This document shows positions 4,380-32,855 of a stretch of 64,000 bases of DNA, in pieces (position 1 is the first letter of the stretch; every line of letters begins with the position of its first letter). Where the stretch lies: NCBI GenBank assembly GCA_964543865.1, contig CAZIZR010000010.1, positions 15,111 to 79,110 of the forward strand, written 5' to 3'. The translations under genes were made by a program, and so were the position numbers. The stretch comes from an uncultured Chloracidobacterium sp. (lineage in GTDB: Bacteria > Acidobacteriota > Blastocatellia > Pyrinomonadales > Pyrinomonadaceae). The notes below the pieces were generated by a model that was not told the DNA's origin, made no database searches, and was given only the letters and a program-made list of their open reading frames with translations.

Positions 4380-4455
4380 CGTAACGCGATTTAGCGAACA
4401 TCGCGTCGCAAGCTTTCGTATTGTTTAAGGATTTGGCAAACTCTGTTCATATTTG

Positions 4456-5379
4456 ATGAAACGTAATTTTTTGCCGCGACAATTGAAACCCTTGCCCATC
4501 ATACTGGCGATCCTGCTCGCCGGACTAACGGCGTTTTCCCAAGAAAACCAGCCATGGTCGCAAAATACTTCGCCGCTGCCGCCGCCGACCGGTTTTGTCA
4601 ACGATTACGCCGGCGTTATCGACCCGGCGACCAAACAGCAGCTCGAAACCAAGCTCAAAAATCTCAAAGACACAACAAACCCGTCCGTCGAGATAGCCAT
4701 TGCAGTCGTCAAAACGACCGGCGAACGGGCAATTTTCGACTATTCCCTCGCCGTCGCCCGCGGCTGGAAAATTGGAACTGTTGATGACGATAACCCAAGC
4801 GCTCTACTCTTTATCGCTATCGACGACCGCAAATATTTCACACAGGTCAGCAAAGATCTCGAAGACGAGCTACCCGACGGCGTCGTTGGTGGTTTACAGC
4901 GACAATTCCTCGTGCCGGAGTTCAAAAAGGGCAACTACGCCAAGGGCATCAATGACACCATCGACGCCTACATCGCAACCATCCGCGACAAAGGCAATAC
5001 GGCCGGCAAAGCGAATACAGCAAAACCCACTGGCACGGACAGTGGTTCCGGTGGTGCGTTTTTTGGAATATTCTGCTGTGCGGGAATAATTCTGATCGTG
5101 GTCGTTATACTGATAGCCTCACGCGGCAACAAAGGCGGCCCATCCGCCGGTGACCGCAACCGCTGGGGCGGCGGCGGATTTGGCGGCAATCGTAGTAACG
5201 ATGATGTCGCCGGGAACATCGCGTCGGCAGTCATAGGCGGTATTATCGGCTCTGCGCTGTCGGGTGGTAGCTCCTCGAGTTCGTCCAGTGATTGGGGCAG
5301 TTCATCCGGCGGAAGCGATTTTGGCGGCTTCTCTGGCGGAGGTGATTTTGGAGGTGGAGGTTCGGGAGGAGATTGGTAA
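4456..5379 (+). CDS. TPM-domain protein (YgcG-like) with TM segment and Gly/Ser-rich tail
   Basis: Signal peptide, then TGFVNDYAGVIDPATKQQLETKL..., ALLFIAIDDRKYFTQVSKDLEDELPD, then a TM helix and a GGSGGDW-type low-complexity tail. Confidence 0.8.
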   Translation: MKRNFLPRQLKPLPIILAILLAGLTAFSQENQPWSQNTSPLPPPTGFVNDYAGVIDPATKQQLETKLKNLKDTTNPSVEIAIAVVKTTGERAIFDYSLAVARGWKIGTVDDDNPSALLFIAIDDRKYFTQVSKDLEDELPDGVVGGLQRQFLVPEFKKGNYAKGINDTIDAYIATIRDKGNTAGKANTAKPTGTDSGSGGAFFGIFCCAGIILIVVVILIASRGNKGGPSAGDRNRWGGGGFGGNRSNDDVAGNIASAVIGGIIGSALSGGSSSSSSSDWGSSSGGSDFGGFSGGGDFGGGGSGGDW

Positions 5380-5380
5380 T

Positions 5381-6097
5381 ATGAACCATTATTTCGCTGA
5401 TTTTATTGACGATCTGCGGTCAACGCACCGTGAAAATCTTGTGTCTGTTGTGCTTTACGGCTCGGCGGCTGCGGGTGATTTTGTGCCCCGCCAATCGGAT
5501 TACAACATACTCGTCGCGTTAAAAAAGATCGGCCCCGCGGATCTCAGAAATGCACAGGCCTGCATCCGCGAATGGACGCGGCTCGGCAACCCGGTTCCGG
5601 TTTATTTTACCGAATCCGAACTGCAAAATGCGGCTGATGTATTCCCGATCGAATTTCACCAAATGACTGTCGCACACAAGGTTTTGTTTGGCCCCGACGT
5701 GCTTGCGGGGCTCGAAATATCGGACAAGTTTTTGCGGCTGCAAACCGAATACGAACTTCGCAGCAAGCTGATACAGCTTCGCCGGCAATATATCCCTGCG
5801 TCGGCTTCGGTCGATGGATTGAAACGGCTAATGGCGGAAAGCCTGTCGAGTTTTGCGGCATTGTTTCGAGCCGTGCTTATTATCAACGGCCAGACGCCGC
5901 CCGCGACCAAGCCGGAGATCGTCGCCCTGACTGTCAAACATCTACAGATCGATGGAGCGTCGTTTGAAAAGATCTTTGATATTCGCGAGAATAGTGAAAC
6001 CGTGAAATTGGATGAAACCTCCGCCAACGCGCTTTTTGGCGAGTATATGGAGCAGATCGAACAAGTTATTAACGCGGTCGATGCCGCCGGAAAATAG
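5381..6097 (+). CDS. Nucleotidyltransferase-domain protein (Pol-beta-like minimal NTase with helical C-terminal domain)
   Basis: ATG at 5381 lies just after the TPM stop. Motif VVLYGSAAAGDFVPRQSDYNILV (GS...D.D). Confidence 0.65.
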   Translation: MNHYFADFIDDLRSTHRENLVSVVLYGSAAAGDFVPRQSDYNILVALKKIGPADLRNAQACIREWTRLGNPVPVYFTESELQNAADVFPIEFHQMTVAHKVLFGPDVLAGLEISDKFLRLQTEYELRSKLIQLRRQYIPASASVDGLKRLMAESLSSFAALFRAVLIINGQTPPATKPEIVALTVKHLQIDGASFEKIFDIRENSETVKLDETSANALFGEYMEQIEQVINAVDAAGK

Positions 6098-6107
6098 GAG
6101 AATTAAT

Positions 6108-6767
6108 ATGAGAAGAGCAATTTTACTTACCGTAGTATTGATCGCCGCATTTGGTCTGAGCGGATGTAGCTACAACGACCTGACCGCCAAACAGCAGCAG
6201 GTTAAAGGCAAATGGGCCAACGTCGAGAGCTCAATGCAGCGTCGTGCCGACCTGATACCAAACTCGGCTGAGATCGCTAAAATGACCGCTATTCAGGAGC
6301 AGGAAGTTTTTGGCCAGATCGCTGATGCCCGTTCGAAGCTGTTGAACGCCCAGCAAGCCGCACCCGCCGGAACCGGTGGCGACAAATCACCCGAGCAAAA
6401 ACAGGCGATCATCGAAGCCAACAATAGCTTTGGCGGGACGATCGGTCGATTGTTAAGTTTGCAGGAAAATTATCCACAGCTTCGCTCGAACGAAGCATTT
6501 ATGAAATTGCAGGACGAGCTTGCCGGAACCGAAAACCGCATCAACACGGCTCGCCTCGACTTTAACGATGCCGTCACGAGTTACAACACGACCCGCAATT
6601 CGTTCCCTGCTGTCCTAACCGCAGGATTGCTCGGATTCAAAGAAGAGCCGTTTTTCCAAGCGGATGAGAAAGGAAAGACCGTGCCAAATGTGGGCGATGC
6701 CAATTCGATCCGAAAACCGGCAACTGCTCCGGCCGCTCCGGCTAACGCCGCACCTGCGAATAAGTAG
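6108..6767 (+). CDS. lemA: LemA family protein
   Basis: N-terminal lipobox/TM (LSGCSYN), KWANVESSMQRRADLIPN, LQENYPQLRSNEAFMKLQDELAGTENRINTARLDFNDAV. Confidence 0.85.
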   Translation: MRRAILLTVVLIAAFGLSGCSYNDLTAKQQQVKGKWANVESSMQRRADLIPNSAEIAKMTAIQEQEVFGQIADARSKLLNAQQAAPAGTGGDKSPEQKQAIIEANNSFGGTIGRLLSLQENYPQLRSNEAFMKLQDELAGTENRINTARLDFNDAVTSYNTTRNSFPAVLTAGLLGFKEEPFFQADEKGKTVPNVGDANSIRKPATAPAAPANAAPANK

Positions 6768-7034
6768 TTAGAAGCCGCGGGAATTACACATTGAACAGTG
6801 GTCACAAGGCTTGCCGGGCTCAAACTGGCAAGCCTTTTCTTTGAATTCAGCTCCAAAGATCGAATCTGCTATTGCCTCAGCAATGCTTAGTTTGTCGAGA
6901 GACGGGTGCGATGTGATCTGTTTGTGATTGGAGACACCGCTGTTTTCCAGCTTATCGAGACGATGGGTGATCTTCTCAACGGCGGCAAACAGAGCGGCTA
7001 GGTCTGTGGGATCTTTGATTTCGTTTGCTGACAT
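6768..7034 (-). CDS. Small BMC-operon protein, N-terminal amphipathic helix plus C-terminal Cys cluster
   Basis: 88 aa, starts 3 nt after the stop of the last EutN gene. DLAALFAAVEKITHRLDKLE helix. C-terminal CQFEPGKPCDHCSMC (C-x7-C-x2-C-x2-C). Confidence 0.5.
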   Translation of the reverse strand: MSANEIKDPTDLAALFAAVEKITHRLDKLENSGVSNHKQITSHPSLDKLSIAEAIADSIFGAEFKEKACQFEPGKPCDHCSMCNSRGF

Positions 7035-7037
7035 TTC

Positions 7038-7325
7038 CTAATACTTGTTTGAATCGAGCAGATCCAGATAATCAACCACACCCACAATTGCCGAATCGAT
7101 TGCCGCACCGGGCTTGCCTGTTGAGGCGGTCGATGCAGACCAGCCTTCTTGAGCAATAATAACGATGTCGCCCTCACCGGCATTGACCGAATCGAGAGCG
7201 ATACATGTGTAATCCATGTCCGCACCTTCGGGCGTGATCTGGCGGCAGAGCATCGCACGCGTCCCCTCGTAACGCTGATTTTTCTGCGTTGCGACCACGT
7301 TACCAATTACACGGGCGATAAGCAT
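7038..7325 (-). CDS. BMC pentamer vertex protein (EutN/CcmL family, BMC-P), copy 3
   Basis: MLIARVIGNVVATQKNQRYEG...ALDSVNAGEGDIVIIAQEG...AIDSAIVGVVD. Confidence 0.85.
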   Translation of the reverse strand: MLIARVIGNVVATQKNQRYEGTRAMLCRQITPEGADMDYTCIALDSVNAGEGDIVIIAQEGWSASTASTGKPGAAIDSAIVGVVDYLDLLDSNKY

Positions 7326-7373
7326 TTTGTTTCTTGCTGTTTTGTTTCACTGTGTGGGGCGAAACAAAACAGA

Positions 7374-7649
7374 CTATCCTTGAAAAACGTGGGCATCCGA
7401 ATCGATTATCCCTACGATGGTACAATCGGTCGGCGTTTCGTCGCGCTTGAACGGAAACGAGGCTTCCTTTCCTCTACACCAAAAAACCAGCTCACCCTCG
7501 CCGGCGCCGACCGCATCAAGCGCGATTGTCGGGCTACCTTTTGGCTTTAGATCGGCGTCGAGCGTCTGCACAATGAGAAATTTACGACCGTGAAGCGCTT
7601 CGTTCTTCACGGTCGAAACCACATTTCCAATTACACGTGCGATCTGCAT
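7374..7649 (-). CDS. BMC pentamer vertex protein (EutN/CcmL family, BMC-P), copy 2
   Basis: MQIARVIGNVVSTVKNEALHGRKFLIVQ...ALDAVGAGEGELV...DCTIVGIID. Confidence 0.85.
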   Translation of the reverse strand: MQIARVIGNVVSTVKNEALHGRKFLIVQTLDADLKPKGSPTIALDAVGAGEGELVFWCRGKEASFPFKRDETPTDCTIVGIIDSDAHVFQG

Positions 7650-7735
7650 GGTCAGTCTAGAAAGTCTGGTAAGCCCGGAAGTCTAGAAAGACTGTCCGGG
7701 AAAGCTTCCCAGACTTTTCAAGACTTCCTAGACTG

Positions 7736-8005
7736 TCAAGACATGTAATCTATCTCGTCAATAACCCCGATGATCGCCGAATCGACCGGGCAATCTTTAT
7801 TGCCCTCGGCAAGACGCGCGGACGAGCCACCGACGACGATCACTTTTTCGTGAAAGCCCGCCCCGACCGTATCAACGGAAACAACATAGCCGCTCTGGTC
7901 AGTGCCGTCGAGATTGATCGGCTTGACGATGAGCAGCTTTTTCCCGTGCAGGCGTTCGTCTTTTTGCGTGGACACGACAGTGCCCAATATGCGTGCGATT
8001 ATCAT
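7736..8005 (-). CDS. BMC pentamer vertex protein (EutN/CcmL family, BMC-P), copy 1
   Basis: MIIARILGTVVSTQKDERLHGKKLLIVKP...SVDTVGAGFHEKVIVVGGSSAR...PVDSAIIGVIDEID. Confidence 0.85.
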   Translation of the reverse strand: MIIARILGTVVSTQKDERLHGKKLLIVKPINLDGTDQSGYVVSVDTVGAGFHEKVIVVGGSSARLAEGNKDCPVDSAIIGVIDEIDYMS

Positions 8006-8069
8006 GGCTCGTGAATAGTAAATCGTGAATAGTAAGATTGTCTCTTATCTATTTACGATTCACTACTTA

Positions 8070-8348
8070 CTATTTCCTAACTACCGGAAGCGTTTCATCA
8101 ACGCTTGCGTGCGGACGCGGGATGACGTGGACGCTGACAAGCTCGCCAACACGGCGTGCTGCAGCGGCTCCGGCATCGGTCGCAGCCTTAACCGCGGCAA
8201 CGTCACCTCGAACGATTGCTGTGACAAATCCGGCGCCGATCTTCTCGTAGGATACGAGCTGTACGTTCGCCGCTTTGACCATCGCGTCCGCAGCCTCGAT
8301 AGTCGCCACGAGTCCCTTGGTTTCAACCATTCCTAATGCTTCTTGCAT
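8070..8348 (-). CDS. BMC hexamer shell protein (PduA/EutM-type, BMC-H)
   Basis: [30 protein letters not shown]...[25 protein letters not shown]...VHVIPRPH. Confidence 0.9.
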
Positions 8349-8395
8349 TTATTTGCTCCTGGTTCGTCTAATAGAATTACTAAAGTTTTGTTAGT

Positions 8396-9196
8396 TTAAC
8401 CCAACTTGGCCGCTTGGCTCAAAAGCTCGATCAACTCTTCGCGTGTAAATGAGATCTTTTTGCCGTTAGATTCGCCCTGAACGGGGTAATTTACGTCTAG
8501 ATCACAGGCAATATCGTTTTCATGCAGATATCCGCAAGCCTGACAACGGGCATTTTCACCGAGAAATCCTGCCTTTTCTCTGAGTTTTATCAACTTGCCG
8601 ATAGCCTCTTTTGGAATGTCATTCGCTCCACCTAAGGCTTTGGCGAGTATCGCGATCTTAGCGGTATGTTCAAGCGTCTCAAGCCGGTCATACGCCTGCC
8701 ACAGATGTTCGCCGTAAGCCACCGCTCCGTGATTAGCCATCAACAATGCATTGTGGTGCGGCACAAAAGGCTTCATCGCCTCGGTCAATTCGTCGGTCGA
8801 TGGGGTTCCGTAATCTGTCAGCGGAACACATCCGAGCGTTAAAACAACTTCTGACAATATCGGTTGGTCTATTGCGAGGCCCGCCACCGCAAATGCCGTC
8901 CCATGCGCCGGATGTGCGTGACAGACAGCGTGAATATCAGGCCGCATCTTGTAAATGAGCAGATGCATCGCTAGCTCTGACGATGCCCGCTTGTCGTTGA
9001 GCGGCTTGCCCTCCATATCGGTCAAGGCAAGACAATCCTCGGTCATTCGCCCTTTCGAGGTCATCGTCGGCGTGGCAAGCACCGTATTTTCATCCAACCG
9101 GATACTGACGTTGCCATCAAACGCGACAACATAGCTGCGTTCGTAAAGCAGCTTGCCGACCTCGACAATAAGTTTTCGAGCGGAGGATTCGTCCAT
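8396..9196 (-). CDS. Class II aldolase/adducin-family protein (fuculose/rhamnulose-phosphate aldolase-like) with ~55 aa C-terminal extension
   Basis: GNVSIR, metal-binding histidines in HAVCHAHPAHGTAF and NHGAVAYG. Extra tail LGENARCQACGYLHENDIAC...FTREELIELLSQAAKLG. Confidence 0.85.
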   Translation of the reverse strand: MDESSARKLIVEVGKLLYERSYVVAFDGNVSIRLDENTVLATPTMTSKGRMTEDCLALTDMEGKPLNDKRASSELAMHLLIYKMRPDIHAVCHAHPAHGTAFAVAGLAIDQPILSEVVLTLGCVPLTDYGTPSTDELTEAMKPFVPHHNALLMANHGAVAYGEHLWQAYDRLETLEHTAKIAILAKALGGANDIPKEAIGKLIKLREKAGFLGENARCQACGYLHENDIACDLDVNYPVQGESNGKKISFTREELIELLSQAAKLG

Positions 9197-9270
9197 AAAA
9201 AAAGGAATCCACAGATTAACACATCCTTTCGGATAGCGTTAACCTGTGGCTAGTCAATGCTAACAAAAAT

Positions 9271-9603
9271 CTATTTTTGTGCTTTCGGGGTCAATGGAAC
9301 ATCAAAGACTCGTAGCTCACACTCATCATCGCCCGGATGTTTGTCGCCATGGCTCATTTTCTTGTTGCCAAGTTGTTCTTGGAGGCGAAGGTTCTCGTTT
9401 CTCAACTCCTGATTCTCGATTCGTAACCGATTCATCTCGTGATGACGCCTAGCTCGAAAACCGCCAAACCTCGGCCGATTGAGATCCACAAAAAAACTGG
9501 TAATAAACACTGCGACCGCAAACGCCGCAACAAAAGGCAATGCCCGTGTGATAAAACCTTTACTACTAGACCAATTCATCTTAACAAAAACTCCTGATAC
9601 CAC
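9271..9603 (-). CDS. Hypothetical membrane-anchored coiled-coil protein
   Basis: One TM helix (LPFVAAFAVAVFITSFFV) followed by LRIENQELRNENLRLQEQL. No family recognised. Confidence 0.4.
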   Translation of the reverse strand: MVSGVFVKMNWSSSKGFITRALPFVAAFAVAVFITSFFVDLNRPRFGGFRARRHHEMNRLRIENQELRNENLRLQEQLGNKKMSHGDKHPGDDECELRVFDVPLTPKAQK

Positions 9604-9749
9604 TGCTTACGCCGGAGTCGCAAAAACGGATTCACCTACATTAATTGCTACCGTATTTTTATATTATACCTTTCGCTTTCGGCGGCAAAGCAAAATCGAC
9701 GATTACGAATAAAAACGACAAAATTATGACGAACGCCGGACGATACACG

Positions 9750-9778
9750 TTGCCCTTGACCTCAATTTCGATTACAAT
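9750..9778 (+). promoter_or_regulatory. Candidate sigma70-type promoter for ruvA
   Basis: TTGCCC (9750..9755), 17-nt spacer, TACAAT (9773..9778), 21 nt before the ruvA ATG. Confidence 0.3.
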
Positions 9779-9799
9779 TTGCGTTGCACGTGTGAAACA

Positions 9800-10411
9800 A
9801 TGATCGCCTTTCTTTCCGGCAAACTACTAGAAAAGCAAGCAAATACGGCTATCGTCGATGTCGGCGGTGTCGGGTACGAAGTGTCGATACCCCTTTCGAC
9901 CTTTTATGAGCTTGGCGAAGTCGGTTCGGACGTCGGTTTGCGCATTTACACGCACGTCCGCGAAGACGCGATACAGCTATTTGGCTTCAAGACTGTCCGT
10001 GAACGCGACCTCTATCTTCGCCTGATCTCAGTTCAGGGCATCGGCCCGAAAATGGGGATCACGATGCTTTCGGGGATGAGTGCCGATGAGATCATTTTGG
10101 CGATCCGCACCGAAGATCTTGCACGGCTGACAAGTATTCCCGGCGTGGGACGTAAGACCGCGGAGCGTTTGGCGATAGAACTGCGTGATAAGATCGGCGA
10201 GCTTTCTACGGGCGGAACCGCCGCGTTGGAAGCAAGTTCACCATCATCGCTGCCGTCCGATGCCGTATTCGAAGACGCCCTTTCAGCCCTCGTAAATCTC
10301 GGATATCAACGCCCCGCCGCCGAAAAAGCTCTAAAACAAGCCGCTCAAGACGGCACCGAGATCACGGTTCAGAAACTGCTGCGAAAAGCTCTGCAGGTGC
10401 TCGCAAAATAA
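9800..10411 (+). CDS. ruvA: Holliday junction DNA helicase subunit RuvA
   Basis: MIAFLSGKLLEK...VDVGGVGYEV, HhH motifs GIGPKMG and IPGVGRKTAERL, C-terminal domain ALVNLGY. Confidence 0.9.
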   Translation: MIAFLSGKLLEKQANTAIVDVGGVGYEVSIPLSTFYELGEVGSDVGLRIYTHVREDAIQLFGFKTVRERDLYLRLISVQGIGPKMGITMLSGMSADEIILAIRTEDLARLTSIPGVGRKTAERLAIELRDKIGELSTGGTAALEASSPSSLPSDAVFEDALSALVNLGYQRPAAEKALKQAAQDGTEITVQKLLRKALQVLAK

Positions 10412-27584: not shown

Positions 27585-29048
27585 TCAATTTGACGATTCT
27601 AAAGCCTCTTTGAGAGCGACTTGAAGCAGGCGATCGGCGTTTTCGATGCCTTGTTTGATGTTTGCTTCCAGTTCGTCGCAAAACTTCATTAGCTTTTCCA
27701 GCTTGGCGACAATCCTTTCTTGTTCGTTTAGTGGCGGAAGTGGAATCGCGTATTTCGATAAAGCCCTTCCGGTGAGATGTTGAATTCCTCCGCCCGTGAA
27801 ATAGTTCGTTAATCTTTTGCTGTTAGCATCGCACAAAAGGCAATAGTAGAGGTATTCGCTTTGCAACGCTCGCTTGTTTGTCCGAACTCGATGCACGGCT
27901 TTTTGAATCTTAATTGGTTGATCGCCTTTCCAAATTGCGGCCCGTCCGGGTTCGCCGCCTTCACAGATTATAAGATCTCCGAAATAGGCTGAATATTTTT
28001 CGTCTTCATCCGGCGTAAACCTCATTTCCTTCAAATCAGACAAATCGAAGCTTCCCCATCGAACATTTACATTTCGTAAATATGGTTGTAATTCGCCCTT
28101 GTTTTTAACTTGGTCAAGCATCTTTCCAAGGCACATTTCGGCTAGATTCCCCAATCGACACCAAACCCAATTTGAAGGGATCTCAAACAGAAGTTCTTCG
28201 GGATTGATCGGCAGTAGAGGTTTGTCTCGTTTGATGCGTTTTTCGGCAATGAGTTTTTCTTTTTCGGACTTTATCTTTTCGAGCAGGATTTCCGCCGGTT
28301 CGTCGGTTGGATCTGGCGGAACGAGCTTTCCTTGCATCGCTTCCCGCAAATACGCTTGCCGAAGCTCTTTGACCAAAGCCAACTGGTGATCGAGTTCGGT
28401 CGAGACTCGGATAATACTTTGTTCCTTGCTGAACAAGGCTTTAAGTTGCTGCGAACAGCCATTGAAAAACTCAGTAGTAGGAATTTTCTTGTTTGCAAAA
28501 ATAGTGTCGAAGTACGCTGATACGCGAAAAGACTCCTCTTTCGAGATCGCAGGAATTTCGAGTTCTCTATATTTTTTCCTTGAAAAATGGCCATGAGTAG
28601 ATGTCTTGATTATGGCCTTGAAATTATTCAGATAAAGGCTCAAATAATAGATGTATCGAGATGAAAAATCTGAATCGAATCTTACTTTCCAAAGGTTCTG
28701 ATTTAACAAGGCTGGTAACACTTCCTTTGAAACCAGTCCGACCTTACCGAGACTTCCACCAACCATTACGATAAGTACATCATCTTCTTTGATAGCAAAA
28801 TTTGATAATTCCTGAATTAGCTTTTCATCGTTTACAAATTTCCTATCATTCTCAGAATCAATTGAACCGTCCGGCTTGATATTCGTAACCCTCAAAACAA
28901 AGCAACCGTCCGTTGTATATTGATGACTCTTAAACGCATAACCGCCTTCAACATCGAAGTCATCTTCGTAGAGCTTCGTTCCACATTTGTTATACAAATA
29001 TTCAAAGACAATTCTTAGTGTTGTGAGAGTTAATTCGTCGTTATACAT
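27585..29048 (-). CDS. hsdS: Type I restriction-modification specificity subunit HsdS (two target-recognition domains)
   Basis: Central conserved helix QLALVKELRQAYLREAMQGKLV and C-terminal LPPLNEQERIVAKLEKLMKFCDELE. 8-nt overlap with hsdM. Confidence 0.9.
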   Translation of the reverse strand: MYNDELTLTTLRIVFEYLYNKCGTKLYEDDFDVEGGYAFKSHQYTTDGCFVLRVTNIKPDGSIDSENDRKFVNDEKLIQELSNFAIKEDDVLIVMVGGSLGKVGLVSKEVLPALLNQNLWKVRFDSDFSSRYIYYLSLYLNNFKAIIKTSTHGHFSRKKYRELEIPAISKEESFRVSAYFDTIFANKKIPTTEFFNGCSQQLKALFSKEQSIIRVSTELDHQLALVKELRQAYLREAMQGKLVPPDPTDEPAEILLEKIKSEKEKLIAEKRIKRDKPLLPINPEELLFEIPSNWVWCRLGNLAEMCLGKMLDQVKNKGELQPYLRNVNVRWGSFDLSDLKEMRFTPDEDEKYSAYFGDLIICEGGEPGRAAIWKGDQPIKIQKAVHRVRTNKRALQSEYLYYCLLCDANSKRLTNYFTGGGIQHLTGRALSKYAIPLPPLNEQERIVAKLEKLMKFCDELEANIKQGIENADRLLQVALKEALESSN

Positions 29049-30465
29049 TTGCGAGATTACTTAACTCCTTCAATACATCAATGTTTTTTGTAAAACTCGT
29101 TTCGAGCAATCCAAGAATTTCTTGGCTTGTATATTCGTGCAAATCTTCCGTCTTGTGCGGATTCTTGATGTCTAAATCATAGTTTCGGGCCTTGATCGTT
29201 TCGATGTGAACCTTCCAGCAAACTTCCGATTCCGTGCGGTTATTCCACCAATCTTTGATCGGCTGAAACTCTTCCGGACGGATCGATTTTGTTTTGCTGT
29301 AACTCTTTTGGCCTTCGGGCAAACGGTGTTCGTAATACCAGATCTCGCGTGTCGGCGTTCCCTTGTCAAAAAACAGCAGATTAGTAGCGACCGTGGCGTA
29401 AGGCTGAAAAACGCTGTTAGGGAGTCGTATGATCGTGTGCAGATTACAATCGGTTAGCAACTTTTCTCGGACACGCTGCTTTACGCCTTCGCCCGAAAGG
29501 CTGCCGTCGGGCAGGACGATCCCTGCACGGCCGCCCATTTTTAGGAGATTGATCATCAAAATCAAAAATAGGTCAGCACTTTCCTTTGTTCGATAGTTCG
29601 CGGGGAAGTTTTTTTCATTGTTGTTAGCAACAACGCCGCCAAAAGGAGGATTTGCGAGTATCACGTTAACCCGATCCATTTCCCGATAAGATGAAAGCGG
29701 CTGTTCCAATGCATCTCGGAAATCAGTATTTGGAACCTCGACATCGTGAATGATCAGATTAGTATTTGCGAGCAAATACGGCAGTGGCTTGTATTCCCAA
29801 CCGGATACATTTTGTTGGATCGCTCGAAGCGTTTCGATGCTGGTATTGTCCTTTCTCAAATGCTCGATAACGCACGTAAGAAAGCCACCCGTTCCCATTG
29901 CAGGATCGAGAACTTTCTCGCCGATCTTCGGATCGACCATTTCAGTTATGAACTGCGTAATAGCTCGCGGGGTGTAAAACTCGCCGCTCTTTCCAGCGCT
30001 TTGCAGATTCTTGAGAATACCTTCGTATATCTCGCCAAAGGCATGGCGTTCTTTGGCAACGTTGAAATCAAGTTCGTTTAGCTTGTTTAGAACTTTGCGG
30101 ATGTTGATTCCGCTTTTCATGTAATTGTTGTTGCCTGAGAAAACGTCGCGGACGATCAGTGCTCGTTTGTTGTTGCCGACGGGCAAACTCCGCAAGGTCG
30201 GGAATAATCTACGGTCGATGAACTCCAACAATTCGTCTCCCGTCATTCCTTCGTCATTTCCTGCCCAATTCTCCCAACGAAATGCTTCGGGAATCGCGGA
30301 GCGATAGCCCTCGTTAAGCAATTCCATTTCCTGCTCTTTGTCACAGTAGATCTTAAAGAACAGCATCCATCCAAGCTGTTCAATTCTCTGCGCGTCACCA
30401 TTAAGACCTGTATCAGGCCACATCAGGTTTTGAATTGATTTCAGAAATCCTGAGAGATTTGCCAT
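29041..30465 (-). CDS. hsdM: Type I restriction-modification N6-adenine DNA methyltransferase HsdM
   Basis: GEFYTPR, VLDPAMGTGGFL (SAM binding), ILANPPFGG (NPPF catalytic motif). Confidence 0.95.
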   Translation of the reverse strand: MANLSGFLKSIQNLMWPDTGLNGDAQRIEQLGWMLFFKIYCDKEQEMELLNEGYRSAIPEAFRWENWAGNDEGMTGDELLEFIDRRLFPTLRSLPVGNNKRALIVRDVFSGNNNYMKSGINIRKVLNKLNELDFNVAKERHAFGEIYEGILKNLQSAGKSGEFYTPRAITQFITEMVDPKIGEKVLDPAMGTGGFLTCVIEHLRKDNTSIETLRAIQQNVSGWEYKPLPYLLANTNLIIHDVEVPNTDFRDALEQPLSSYREMDRVNVILANPPFGGVVANNNEKNFPANYRTKESADLFLILMINLLKMGGRAGIVLPDGSLSGEGVKQRVREKLLTDCNLHTIIRLPNSVFQPYATVATNLLFFDKGTPTREIWYYEHRLPEGQKSYSKTKSIRPEEFQPIKDWWNNRTESEVCWKVHIETIKARNYDLDIKNPHKTEDLHEYTSQEILGLLETSFTKNIDVLKELSNLANV

Positions 30466-30467
30466 AG

Positions 30468-32855
30468 CTATGCAGAAATCCTATAAAGTTCGGTTTCCAA
30501 TGATCTGACAGCCTCGAGGTAATTTTCTCGTCCGCCAAACGTTTTGATTATCTCCACTGGCGAACCAAAACGATCAAACGGAACAACCTTTAGTACATCT
30601 AAGCTCTCAATGTTCTCGACACCTTCATCGGCATACTTTTCAAGTAATGCTTCAAGAACCTGTCGAGCATTGTCGCCATATTTCGTAAAGTAATTACGCT
30701 TCTTGACGTTATTTGCCCTTTCCGCACGAGTCAAAGGCGGCTGGTCGTAGGCGATGTGACAAATTAGGTCAAAGAGATCGAGTTTCTTATCAACTGAATT
30801 TAAAAGCTCGTCAATCGGCACCCCAAGTTTCTCAAGTTCGGTAACGATCGCTTCTTTCTTCTCGGCCTCATTCCACTTATTCAAGAAATCATTCAACGTT
30901 GCAAACTGCTCCCGAACCAAATCGCGTGTGTAGTCGGTCAGCTTTCGTGTGATCGGCTTTCCGTCTTTATCAAAAGCCAATTCACGTGAAACCAAAACAG
31001 AAACGTCAACGCCGTTAATGACAACCTTCTGCCGAGGCACGACACCACAGACCGAGTCAGGAGTACGAATCTCAGGCGGAACAAACTCAACCTCTTCTTC
31101 GGTTACATCGTCGATGATCGGTGTATCATCGGACTGTTCGTCGTCAATTAGAGTAGATAGATCGTCGTCCTCAGTGAGTTCCTTAATTCGAATTGGATCG
31201 CCATCAAAATCTTTGTCTGCGAAAAGGTCGGTCACATTTCGGAAATCAAGGATCGTGAAATAGAACTTATCGTACTCAGCATTTATGCGTGTTCCGCGAC
31301 CAATGATCTGTTTGAATTTGATCATCGAATTGATATTCGAATCAAGAACGATAACCTTGCACGTCTGAGCATCAATACCCGTTGTCATCAGTTCCGACGT
31401 TGTGGCGATCACCGGAAAACTCTCTTGAGGGTCGGTAAAATTCTCAAGCTCTCGCTTGCCGTCAAGATCGTCGCCCGTGATCTTCATCACGTATTTGTAG
31501 TTTGCTGCGACGAGGTCGGAGTTCTCTTTCGCAAGTTCCGAACGCATTCGTTCGGCGTGGTCGATATCAACACAGAAAACAATTGTTTTCGCGTACCGGT
31601 CAAAGCCCTTTAGAAACTCACTCACCTTTTTTGCGACAAGCGATGTTCGTTCTTCAATTACAAGGGTTCGGTCATAGTCCTTTCTATTGTAGATACGGTC
31701 TTCGACAAGTTCACCCTCAACATCTTTCTTTCCGAGCTCCGGCCTGTAGCCTTCGAGATCAACATTGGTTCCGATTCGCACAACTCGGTAAGGAGCGAGA
31801 AAGCCGTCATCGATTCCCTGCTTCAACGAATATGTGTAAATCGGATCACCAAAGTACTCGATGTTGCTCTCGACCTTGGTTTCCTTTGGCGTTGCCGTCA
31901 GACCGATCTGAGTAGCCGATTTGAAATATCGTAAGATCTCGTGCCAAGACTTGTCCTCATTGATGCTGCCGCGATGACACTCATCGACAATAATTAGGTC
32001 GAAAAACTCAGGCGAGAACTGCTGAAATATCTTACGGTCAGGCTCCGCTCCCGTTAAACCTTGGTATAGAGCGAGATAAACCTCGTATGATTTGTCCACC
32101 TTGTGATTTTGGACCACTGTCATACGGTCTTTGAAATGTTTGAAATCATTTCTCCGAGCTTGATCTATCAAGGCCGTGCGATCTGCGAGAAATAAGATGC
32201 GCTTTTTAGCACCGGCTTTCCATAATCTGTGGGCGATTTGAAATGCGGTGTAGGTCTTGCCAGTGCCAGTCGCCATAACAAGCAAGACTCGATTTTCTCC
32301 AGTAGCAATCGCTTCGATAGTGCGGTTGATCGCAACTTGTTGATAATATCGAGGCTTTCGTCCACTTCCATCGTCGTAGTAATCCTGTTCGACGATTCTT
32401 GTTTCATCTTGAGTAACGATGCCCTTAAAGTTCTTATACTTTTCCCAGAGTGCTTCCGGGCTTGGAAAATTCTCGTTGTCGAGAATTGTCTCAATCTGAT
32501 CTCCGCTTGCCGTCTTATCATGAAAGACAAATCCATCACCGTTGCTACTGAAGACAAATGGTATGTCGAGAATCTGCGAGTAATCTAAAGCCTGCTGTAA
32601 TCCTGAGTGAATCGAATGCTTGTTATCTTTCGCCTCGATGATCGCGATAGGAATATTCGGTTTGAAATAAAGAATGTAATCCGCACGTTTAGCCGTTCCG
32701 CGCATATGCAGTCGGCCTTTTACAAGAATCTTGCCGTCAGTAAAGGAAACTTCCTCAAGAAGCTGAGTTTGCACATCCCAACCCGCCGCCACTACAGCGG
32801 GAGTTATGAACTTTGTGCAGATATCGCGCTCTGAGAGAGATTTCTTATCGACCAT
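30468..32855 (-). CDS. hsdR: Type I restriction enzyme endonuclease/translocase subunit HsdR
   Basis: N-terminal nuclease region (ADYILY...IIEAK), helicase motifs MATGTGKT, DECHR, LTATP and QIIGRGTR. Confidence 0.95.
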   Translation of the reverse strand: MVDKKSLSERDICTKFITPAVVAAGWDVQTQLLEEVSFTDGKILVKGRLHMRGTAKRADYILYFKPNIPIAIIEAKDNKHSIHSGLQQALDYSQILDIPFVFSSNGDGFVFHDKTASGDQIETILDNENFPSPEALWEKYKNFKGIVTQDETRIVEQDYYDDGSGRKPRYYQQVAINRTIEAIATGENRVLLVMATGTGKTYTAFQIAHRLWKAGAKKRILFLADRTALIDQARRNDFKHFKDRMTVVQNHKVDKSYEVYLALYQGLTGAEPDRKIFQQFSPEFFDLIIVDECHRGSINEDKSWHEILRYFKSATQIGLTATPKETKVESNIEYFGDPIYTYSLKQGIDDGFLAPYRVVRIGTNVDLEGYRPELGKKDVEGELVEDRIYNRKDYDRTLVIEERTSLVAKKVSEFLKGFDRYAKTIVFCVDIDHAERMRSELAKENSDLVAANYKYVMKITGDDLDGKRELENFTDPQESFPVIATTSELMTTGIDAQTCKVIVLDSNINSMIKFKQIIGRGTRINAEYDKFYFTILDFRNVTDLFADKDFDGDPIRIKELTEDDDLSTLIDDEQSDDTPIIDDVTEEEVEFVPPEIRTPDSVCGVVPRQKVVINGVDVSVLVSRELAFDKDGKPITRKLTDYTRDLVREQFATLNDFLNKWNEAEKKEAIVTELEKLGVPIDELLNSVDKKLDLFDLICHIAYDQPPLTRAERANNVKKRNYFTKYGDNARQVLEALLEKYADEGVENIESLDVLKVVPFDRFGSPVEIIKTFGGRENYLEAVRSLETELYRISA

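Follow-up and report, generated by a model that had tools for sequence, protein, structure and literature searches.

A six-gene shell and aldolase cluster of a Pyrinomonadaceae acidobacterium as the probable main locus of an ACI-type microcompartment

We analysed a six-gene operon on the minus strand (9196..6768) of a 64-kb stretch of DNA from an uncultured Chloracidobacterium sp. (contig CAZIZR010000010.1; from here on, the whole stretch is called the window), and we assign it, with a probability of roughly 0.85, to the ACI type of bacterial microcompartment (BMC), as its main locus in an acidobacterium of the Pyrinomonadaceae. The assignment was made by comparison with the description of this type in the BMC catalogue that defines it (Sutter, Melnicki, Schulz, Woyke and Kerfeld, 2021, Nat Commun 12:3809; PMC8217296), and by it the locus is a further example of an already catalogued type and no new kind of system. 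An initial annotation, made from the letters alone, had described six co-directional genes for a class II aldolase, one hexameric shell protein (BMC-H), three pentameric shell proteins (BMC-P) and an 88-aa protein, and the open reading frames (ORFs) and Pfam matches agreed with it in every detail.

Assignment of the operon to the ACI type

The six ORFs are all full length and are separated by gaps of 47, 64, 86, 48 and 3 nt. From the first gene to the last they are as follows.

8396..9196, minus strand: class II aldolase, 266 aa; PF00596 (Aldolase_II), E = 4e-45
8070..8348, minus strand: BMC-H, 92 aa; PF00936, E = 2e-30
7736..8005, minus strand: BMC-P paralog 1 (P1), 89 aa; PF03319, positions 1-83 of 83, E = 3e-29
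7374..7649, minus strand: BMC-P paralog 2 (P2), 91 aa; PF03319 (EutN_CcmL), full length, E = 8e-31
7038..7325, minus strand: BMC-P paralog 3 (P3), 95 aa; PF03319, full length, E = 5e-21
6768..7034, minus strand: small Cys-rich protein, 88 aa; no Pfam or NCBIfam match

According to the parts of the catalogue that describe it, the ACI type comprises 125 loci, all in Acidobacteria and mainly in subdivisions 4 and 6. The ACI main locus encodes a PF00596 aldolase whose encapsulation peptide (EP) is C-terminal and which is placed nearest the aldolases of the HO and MIC3 types, a hydroxyacid dehydrogenase, a BMC-H and an adjacent BMC-P triplet, together with a protein of ~80 aa that has an EP at its N-terminus and, towards its C-terminus, three cysteines that are conserved, and further unknown proteins, one of which has three conserved histidines. 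The aldehyde dehydrogenase (AldDh; PF00171), with its own EP near the C-terminus, is "consistently" found "in most genomes" on a satellite locus that also carries a BMC-H or a fourth BMC-P (PMC8217296). The window locus agrees with this account in its acidobacterial host, its adjacent BMC-P triplet, its one standard BMC-H and the absence of AldDh from the main locus, and further in an aldolase whose EP is C-terminal and a ~80-aa protein in which the EP is N-terminal and the conserved cysteines lie near the C-terminus. By the catalogue's rule a main locus has one or more BMC-H as well as one or more BMC-P (PMC8217296), and because a single operon here holds one BMC-H together with three BMC-P, the cluster is a main locus, not the satellite shell locus that had been suggested. 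The suggestion that came with it, of a fragmented system with parts encoded elsewhere, is probably right.

The shell genes make up a complete minimal set, with one hexamer for the facets and a pentamer triplet for the vertices. The BMC-H clears the NCBIfam EutM cutoff, bears K25 and the PRPH edge motif (IPRPH), and matches PduA, EutM and HO-5815 in the PDB at 1e-35 to 1e-38. The best PDB matches of P1 are CcmL and the HO BMC-P 5V74, and that of P3 is 4I7A. The three BMC-P are pairwise 36-41% identical (P2 versus P1 41%, P2 versus P3 38%) and are old paralogs.

Related loci were drawn from two scans. The first, of a species-representative genome collection with the motif of the small protein, gave 569 confirmed stretches, the nearest 80 of which were used; the second, a metagenome scan seeded with a long form of the small protein, gave the 16 long metagenome loci of what we call clade 2. 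The core of aldolase, BMC-H, three BMC-P and small protein is retained in ~80 clade-1 and 16 clade-2 loci (~100 in all) and is thus the conserved unit of both clades. Each BMC-P has one-to-one orthologs in the related loci (P1 at 74-98%, P2 at 71-97% and P3 at 66-96% identity), the aldolase is 66-98% identical among them, and the BMC-H is 90-100% identical over ~90 loci. Because ORFs and domains are full length, and because the BMC-P orthologs are 66-98% and the BMC-H orthologs 90-100% identical, the six genes are intact and under purifying selection. The shell genes are thus not the pseudogenes that the initial annotation had named as a finding that would go against it.

The same comparison places the host. 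Named aldolase matches at 84-98% identity come from Pyrinomonadaceae, Chloracidobacterium sp. and acidobacterial metagenome-assembled genomes (MAGs), with thousands of close relatives, and because the named close relatives are of this kind, we place the host, by sequence, in subdivision 4 of the Acidobacteria (Blastocatellia), family Pyrinomonadaceae. Among the closest relatives, GCA_016712045.1 and GCA_049643185.1 have aldolases 98% identical to it; JBEBGA01 ("ASF_10") and the 4.15-Mb contig JADJTD010000001.1 are also counted among them. The nearest 80 of the 569 loci are labelled Acidobacteriota, with two exceptions: a MAG filed as an unclassified "bacterium", and a 2-kb contig in a "Persicitalea" MAG. 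The latter (L075; NZ_JBGSXF010000528.1, "Persicitalea sp.", 1952 bp) carries BMC-P, small protein and LemA in the acidobacterial order, and its place in a Bacteroidota-labelled MAG is likely to reflect binning contamination. An acidobacterial ACI locus is also found in the 6.99-Mb record CP070897.1 of "Leptolyngbya sp. 7M" (L005); its synteny with its relative L004 ends ~1 kb past LemA, hetR lies ~1.3 kb further, and a Logan contig with an identical aldolase retains acidobacterial neighbours. The record was probably assembled as a chimera.

The enzymes that the initial annotation had reported as missing from the neighbourhood were indeed not found. To scan the window, Pfam was run on its long ORFs (the longest ones, with little overlap and 150 aa or more) and tblastn was run with its own shell proteins; together these searches found no AldDh (PF00171), PduL, 2-hydroxyacid dehydrogenase, BMC-kind, Fe-ADH-type alcohol dehydrogenase, BMC-T or additional shell gene in the 64 kb. 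Further, when conserved neighbours in the ~100 related loci were scanned by family, no AldDh, PduL or hydroxyacid dehydrogenase turned up within 10 kb, and the neighbours scanned in the 80 genome and 16 metagenome loci were housekeeping genes and sporadic insertions only.

Several points weigh against the ACI assignment. First, the hydroxyacid dehydrogenase (PF00389/PF02826) of the catalogue's ACI main locus was not found among the scanned ORFs of the window, nor among the conserved neighbours, within 10 kb, in the ~100 related loci. Second, the satellite AldDh is, for this lineage, taken wholly from the literature. Third, the BMC-P triplet was compared with that of ACI by description, so that its green, grey and orange assignment, in the terms of the catalogue's shell hidden Markov models, is putative. 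Fourth, no substrate can be assigned to the aldolase from its family scores, all of which fall below their cutoffs. Finally, five related genomes have the small protein beside LemA with neither aldolase nor shell genes nearby, so that the link between the small protein and the shell operon may be less than strict. A smaller difference concerns conserved residues: the small protein has four invariant cysteines (C69, C77, C80 and C83) and His43 where the catalogue's description speaks of three cysteines. Among the conserved neighbours without a family match, a 238-aa protein (u238) has one invariant histidine and a 110-aa protein (u110) none; the catalogue's protein with three conserved histidines may or may not be one of them. 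Beyond what the catalogue's ACI passages describe lie a Cys3His motif in the aldolase, a linkage to Rex, synteny with ruvA and LemA/TPM, and a leader hairpin, all of which are described below. No experimental work on ACI BMCs, or on the BMCs of Pyrinomonadaceae, turned up in a literature search.

The two putative cargo proteins

Four segments of the aldolase and the small protein bear on their proposed role as cargo.

8504..8545, minus strand: aldolase-tail motif C218-x2-C221-x3-H225-x5-C231 (ARCQACGYLHExxxxC)
8405..8458, minus strand: aldolase C-terminal EP, KISFTREELIELLSQAAK
6936..7010, minus strand: small-protein N-terminal amphipathic helix, residues ~9-33, a putative EP
6771..6830, minus strand: small-protein C-terminal motif EKxC-x7/8-PCDHCxMCxSRGF-COOH

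The catalytic PF00596 domain covers residues 9-182 of the 266 residues of the aldolase and is followed by a C-terminal extension of ~80 aa. H93, H95 and H156, which by analogy to E. coli FucA are putative metal-ligand histidines, are invariant across 60 aldolase orthologs. The CxxC-x3-H-x5-C motif in the tail is (nearly) invariant in the 60 clade-1 orthologs and is carried by all 15 of the clade-2 aldolases, which are ~70% identical overall to that of the window; it is a probable metal site and lies between the catalytic domain and the EP. Close to the C-terminus, a segment K(I/V)SxTREELxELL is conserved in both clades and the linker ahead of it is variable. AlphaFold predicts a helix at residues 252-264; the model is poor (mean predicted local distance difference test score, pLDDT, of 49, from a shallow alignment) and was used for this terminal helix only.

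The aldolase did not reach an equivalog cutoff in NCBIfam. Its best score was with OtnC (3-oxo-tetronate-4-phosphate decarboxylase; 133 bits versus a cutoff of 250) and its second with archaeal FucA (fuculose-phosphate aldolase; 108 bits, below cutoff), and the FucA and RhaD models taken together scored 52-108 bits versus cutoffs of 170-400. A reaction of the OtnC type would presumably give dihydroxyacetone phosphate (DHAP) and CO2 and no aldehyde. The nearest structures are 6VOQ/6VOP ("aldolase") and FucA, and the automatic annotation of the JGI (Joint Genome Institute) labels aldolase orthologs L-fuculose-phosphate aldolase. Judged by these scores, it would not be justified to name the enzyme a fuculose or rhamnulose aldolase.

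For the small protein, an exhaustive phmmer/HMMER search of 1.84 billion representative proteins gave a family of 142 clusters at 50% identity, 141 of which are short (44-212 aa); the exception, of 4141 aa with seven short matched stretches, looks spurious. Residues H43, S45, C69, P73, P76, C77, D78, C80, M82, C83, R86, G87 and F88 are invariant in 23 diverse members, and the clade-2 proteins are longer (150-185 aa). AlphaFold predicts a helix at residues 9-33 with pLDDT 86-91, a second helix at 44-66 and a low-confidence coil for the Cys-rich tail, and the hydrophobic moment peaks at residues 14-33. Because the first helix is confidently predicted and coincides with this peak, the N-terminal helix fits an EP.

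We also considered whether the small protein might share ancestry with the ~50-aa domain found after the EP in the ACI AldDh; this was rejected, as the phmmer search returned no protein of AldDh length. The longer proteins that matched to the N-terminus only were copies with a frameshift, a truncation or a chimeric join. In the five loci that have the small protein and no shell genes (L030, L040 from Acidobacteria bacterium OLB17, L044, L057 and L066; LLEU01, of OLB17, and JAHBSI01 are among the genomes), an intact small Cys4 gene stands by LemA, an unknown gene, TPM and dnaX, and pdxJ, a glycosyltransferase gene and other housekeeping genes occupy the site where aldolase and shell genes would be expected. 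In these genomes the shell operon has either moved or been lost.

We propose that the shell would enclose two EP-bearing cargos, namely a metal-dependent enzyme of the class II aldolase family and the small Cys4 protein. Inside the shell, the aldolase would cleave a phosphorylated sugar or sugar acid into a reactive aldehyde and DHAP, and an acylating AldDh, itself EP-tagged and encoded on a satellite in another part of the genome, would consume the aldehyde; this step is the weakest link of the proposal for this lineage. The small Cys4 protein and the Cys3His site of the aldolase may bind metal, either zinc in a structural role or iron or an Fe-S cluster in a redox role, and the occurrence of two Cys/His motifs suggests that metal binding could be part of cargo function or packing. 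What the sequences show are the identities of the genes, their conservation, the EP-like segments and invariant motifs, the taxonomy, and the agreement with the catalogued type; for the substrate, the AldDh partner in this genome, the metal binding and the regulation of the operon, the proposal states what we infer from the accepted workings of metabolosomes and from the catalogue.

The leader hairpin, upstream genes and neighbourhood

The following features lie upstream of the aldolase gene and between the shell genes.

9271..9603, minus strand: u110, 110 aa, a protein of one transmembrane helix plus a coiled coil; its gene may open the transcription unit
9197..9249, minus strand: leader RNA hairpin and U-rich tract up to the aldolase AUG
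8069..8006, minus strand: structured intercistronic spacer between BMC-H and P1
7735..7650, minus strand: structured intercistronic spacer between P1 and P2
7373..7326, minus strand: structured intercistronic spacer between P2 and P3

The leader hairpin (9249..9209) has the sequence CCACAGGUUAAC-GCUAUCCGAAAGGAUGU-GUUAAUCUGUGG; it begins 22 nt past the u110 stop and ends 12 nt ahead of the aldolase AUG, and is followed by AUUCCUUUUUUU. Its predicted free energy is -29 kcal/mol (z = -5.3), it is single copy in the window, and Rfam gave no family match in 6500..9900, the hairpin included. It occurs once in each clade-1 locus that covers the spacer, in 55 distinct versions, among which the 12-bp lower stem (CCACAGRUUAAC / GUUAAUCUGUGG) is almost invariant. 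One-sided changes in the stem all stay paired, solely as G-U wobbles on the sense strand, and there are two compensatory changes. The apical part, of 8-18 nt, is variable; it lengthens the stem to 16-18 bp in 52 of the 55 versions and often ends in a GNRA or UUCG loop. A covariance model of the hairpin scored 75 bits on the sense strand and 29 bits on the antisense strand and found nothing in the clade-2 loci nor in the five loci without shell genes. Where another gene is inserted ahead of the aldolase, the hairpin remains 5' of the insert, directly after u110. The hairpin looks like an intrinsic terminator or attenuator, and it probably acts as one or as a binding site for a protein; because the sequence of the stem is conserved, specific recognition is suggested.

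The u110 gene stands directly upstream, on the same strand, in all 49 clade-1 loci with enough upstream sequence, and is absent from clade 2; its product has no family match and is weakly conserved (31-73% identity). Directly upstream of the aldolase, 14 of 15 clade-2 and 13 of 49 clade-1 loci (for example L004, L006 and L060 in clade 1, and L089-L158 in clade 2) have a gene for a Rex-type regulator (PF06971 and CoA_binding), which is absent from the window. Because Rex is placed in this way in the relatives, redox-dependent (NADH/NAD+) expression is suggested. A search for the canonical Rex operator TTGTGAA-N6-TTCACAA, with up to three mismatches, found no convincing site upstream of the aldolase in either clade.

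Strong hairpins fill all three intercistronic spacers, with minimum free energies of -23.2 (BMC-H to P1), -41.7 (P1 to P2) and -17.5 kcal/mol (P2 to P3). The gap between BMC-P genes has a median of 6 nt in the relatives versus 86 and 48 nt in the window. The three spacers are lineage-specific, and blastn found no related locus that matched the P1-P2 or the P2-P3 spacer. Only part of the BMC-H-P1 spacer recurs, as a 25-nt piece in seven places of six other loci, one of them in clade 2.

The flanking genes of the window, LemA/TPM on one side and ruvA on the other, were correctly named by the initial annotation.

4453..5379, plus strand: TPM-domain gene, on the small-protein side
6012..6767, plus strand: LemA gene, on the small-protein side
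4453-6767, plus strand: window part of the trio of LemA, 238-aa protein and TPM (clade-2 example, L149 4860-7305)
9779..10411: ruvA, on the opposite flank, where ruvB also lies

The dominant layout in clade 1, from clustering of the ORFs of the 80 loci, is ruvB < Rce1-like < ruvA < (Rex) > u110 > aldolase > BMC-H > BMC-P x3 > small protein, followed by LemA < unknown-238 < TPM < dnaX. In clade 2 it is queA < BrkB < ruvB < ruvA < Rex > aldolase > BMC-H > 3x BMC-P > small protein, followed by (LemA < unknown < TPM, in 5 of 16) < ZIP and then the mraZ-mur cluster. The trio of LemA, the family-less 238-aa protein and TPM, convergent to the small protein, is thus found in nearly all clade-1 and in 5 of the 16 clade-2 loci. 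Either the synteny has persisted to an unusual degree across two acidobacterial clades, or the genes have a functional link that has gone unrecognised. Unrelated genes are sporadically inserted between the shell genes of relatives, namely those for DoxX, a TPR/CarboxypepD_reg protein, a 23S-IVS (23S-IVP) protein, a ParDE-like toxin-antitoxin pair and a TonB-like protein.

Two further systems were noted elsewhere in the window. A reverse transcriptase of the UG17 class of defence-associated reverse transcriptases (DRT) is encoded at 69-1184 on the plus strand (PADLOC E = 3e-130 over profile positions 71-427 of 429). The N-terminal end may be upstream of the gene as called or may have been cut off; the gene stands in a stretch of low G+C content (0.44) and is missing where synteny would place it in close relatives. 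At 27585-32855 on the minus strand, in an island of low G+C content (0.43-0.47), lies a type I restriction-modification system that is complete (hsdS, hsdM and hsdR).

Alternative readings and what the locus means

The alternative that fares best is a self-sufficient minimal compartment, in which the shell holds only the aldolase and the small Cys4 protein, has no AldDh, and confines a single aldolase or decarboxylase step. We consider it improbable, which is also the standing we would give to the aldolase-only compartment raised by the initial annotation. In ~100 loci of two clades, no EP-bearing genes but those of the aldolase and the small protein accompany the shell genes; AldDh, PduL and hydroxyacid dehydrogenase were not found in the window or within 10 kb of the relatives; and the top family score of the aldolase is with OtnC, a decarboxylase that, we presume, releases no aldehyde. 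However, absence from a 20-kb neighbourhood is uninformative on the rest of the genome, and in the catalogue's account most ACI genomes have an EP-tagged AldDh on a satellite (PMC8217296), to which an aldolase-only compartment runs contrary. A stripped-down ACI compartment specific to the Pyrinomonadaceae clade, with the aldolase-family enzyme and the small Cys4 metalloprotein as sole cargo and no AldDh, its operon gated by the clade-specific leader hairpin and that hairpin read by a dedicated factor, is likewise a reading to which we give little weight.

The initial annotation had instead seen hallmarks of the PVM (Planctomycetes-Verrucomicrobia fucose/rhamnose) or a related type. We judge it very unlikely that the locus is a fucose/rhamnose metabolosome of the PVM-like kind or one of its satellites. 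Such a system has in common with the window locus three BMC-P paralogs and a signature enzyme that is a PF00596 aldolase, and the JGI label on the orthologs, L-fuculose-phosphate aldolase, would agree with this reading. However, BMC-P triplets occur in many BMC types, HO, FRAG and ACI among them (PMC8217296), so that the triplet is no PVM hallmark, and the gene set matches the ACI type of Acidobacteria as the catalogue describes it. Further, the host belongs to another phylum, being an acidobacterium and neither a planctomycete nor a verrucomicrobium; the aldolase falls short, by a wide margin, of each FucA and RhaD equivalog cutoff; the locus has the small Cys protein that is specific to ACI; and AldDh, phosphotransacylase (PTAC), acetate kinase, lactaldehyde reductase and BMC-T are lacking at the locus. 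No PVM core (AldDh, PTAC and further fucose/rhamnose enzymes) accompanies shell genes in the 64-kb window, and a PVM satellite would be at odds with BMC-H and BMC-P standing together, which by definition make a main locus.

The HO BMC of Haliangium ochraceum, with a type I main locus and a satellite that carries two BMC-P and an aldolase, is alike in its fragmented layout, its BMC-P triplet and its PduA-like BMC-H (HO-5815, 1.9e-35). It differs in that the HO loci are myxobacterial and have BMC-T and AldDh in the main locus, whereas the window aldolase travels with the BMC-H and all three BMC-P.

Least probable of all, and hardly tenable, is a decaying or silent remnant of a BMC locus: the three unusually long structured spacers of this lineage, the relatives with unrelated inserts (DoxX, TPR, 23S-IVP, toxin-antitoxin) among their shell genes and the five related genomes in which aldolase and shell genes are gone from the site would fit decay, but the six ORFs and their domain matches extend over the full length, the orthologs are 66-100% identical across two clades and all catalytic and motif residues are kept.

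Overall, ACI BMCs appear to be widespread in soil Acidobacteria, going by the 569 stretches that the small-protein motif gave in species-representative genomes. The comparison of related loci sharpens the conserved unit to six genes without a dehydrogenase close by, and it flags handles on the system in the two invariant Cys/His metal motifs on the cargos, the redox link through Rex, and the leader hairpin, by which the regulon might be found. A compartment of aldolase and small protein only, if true, would be the interesting outcome.

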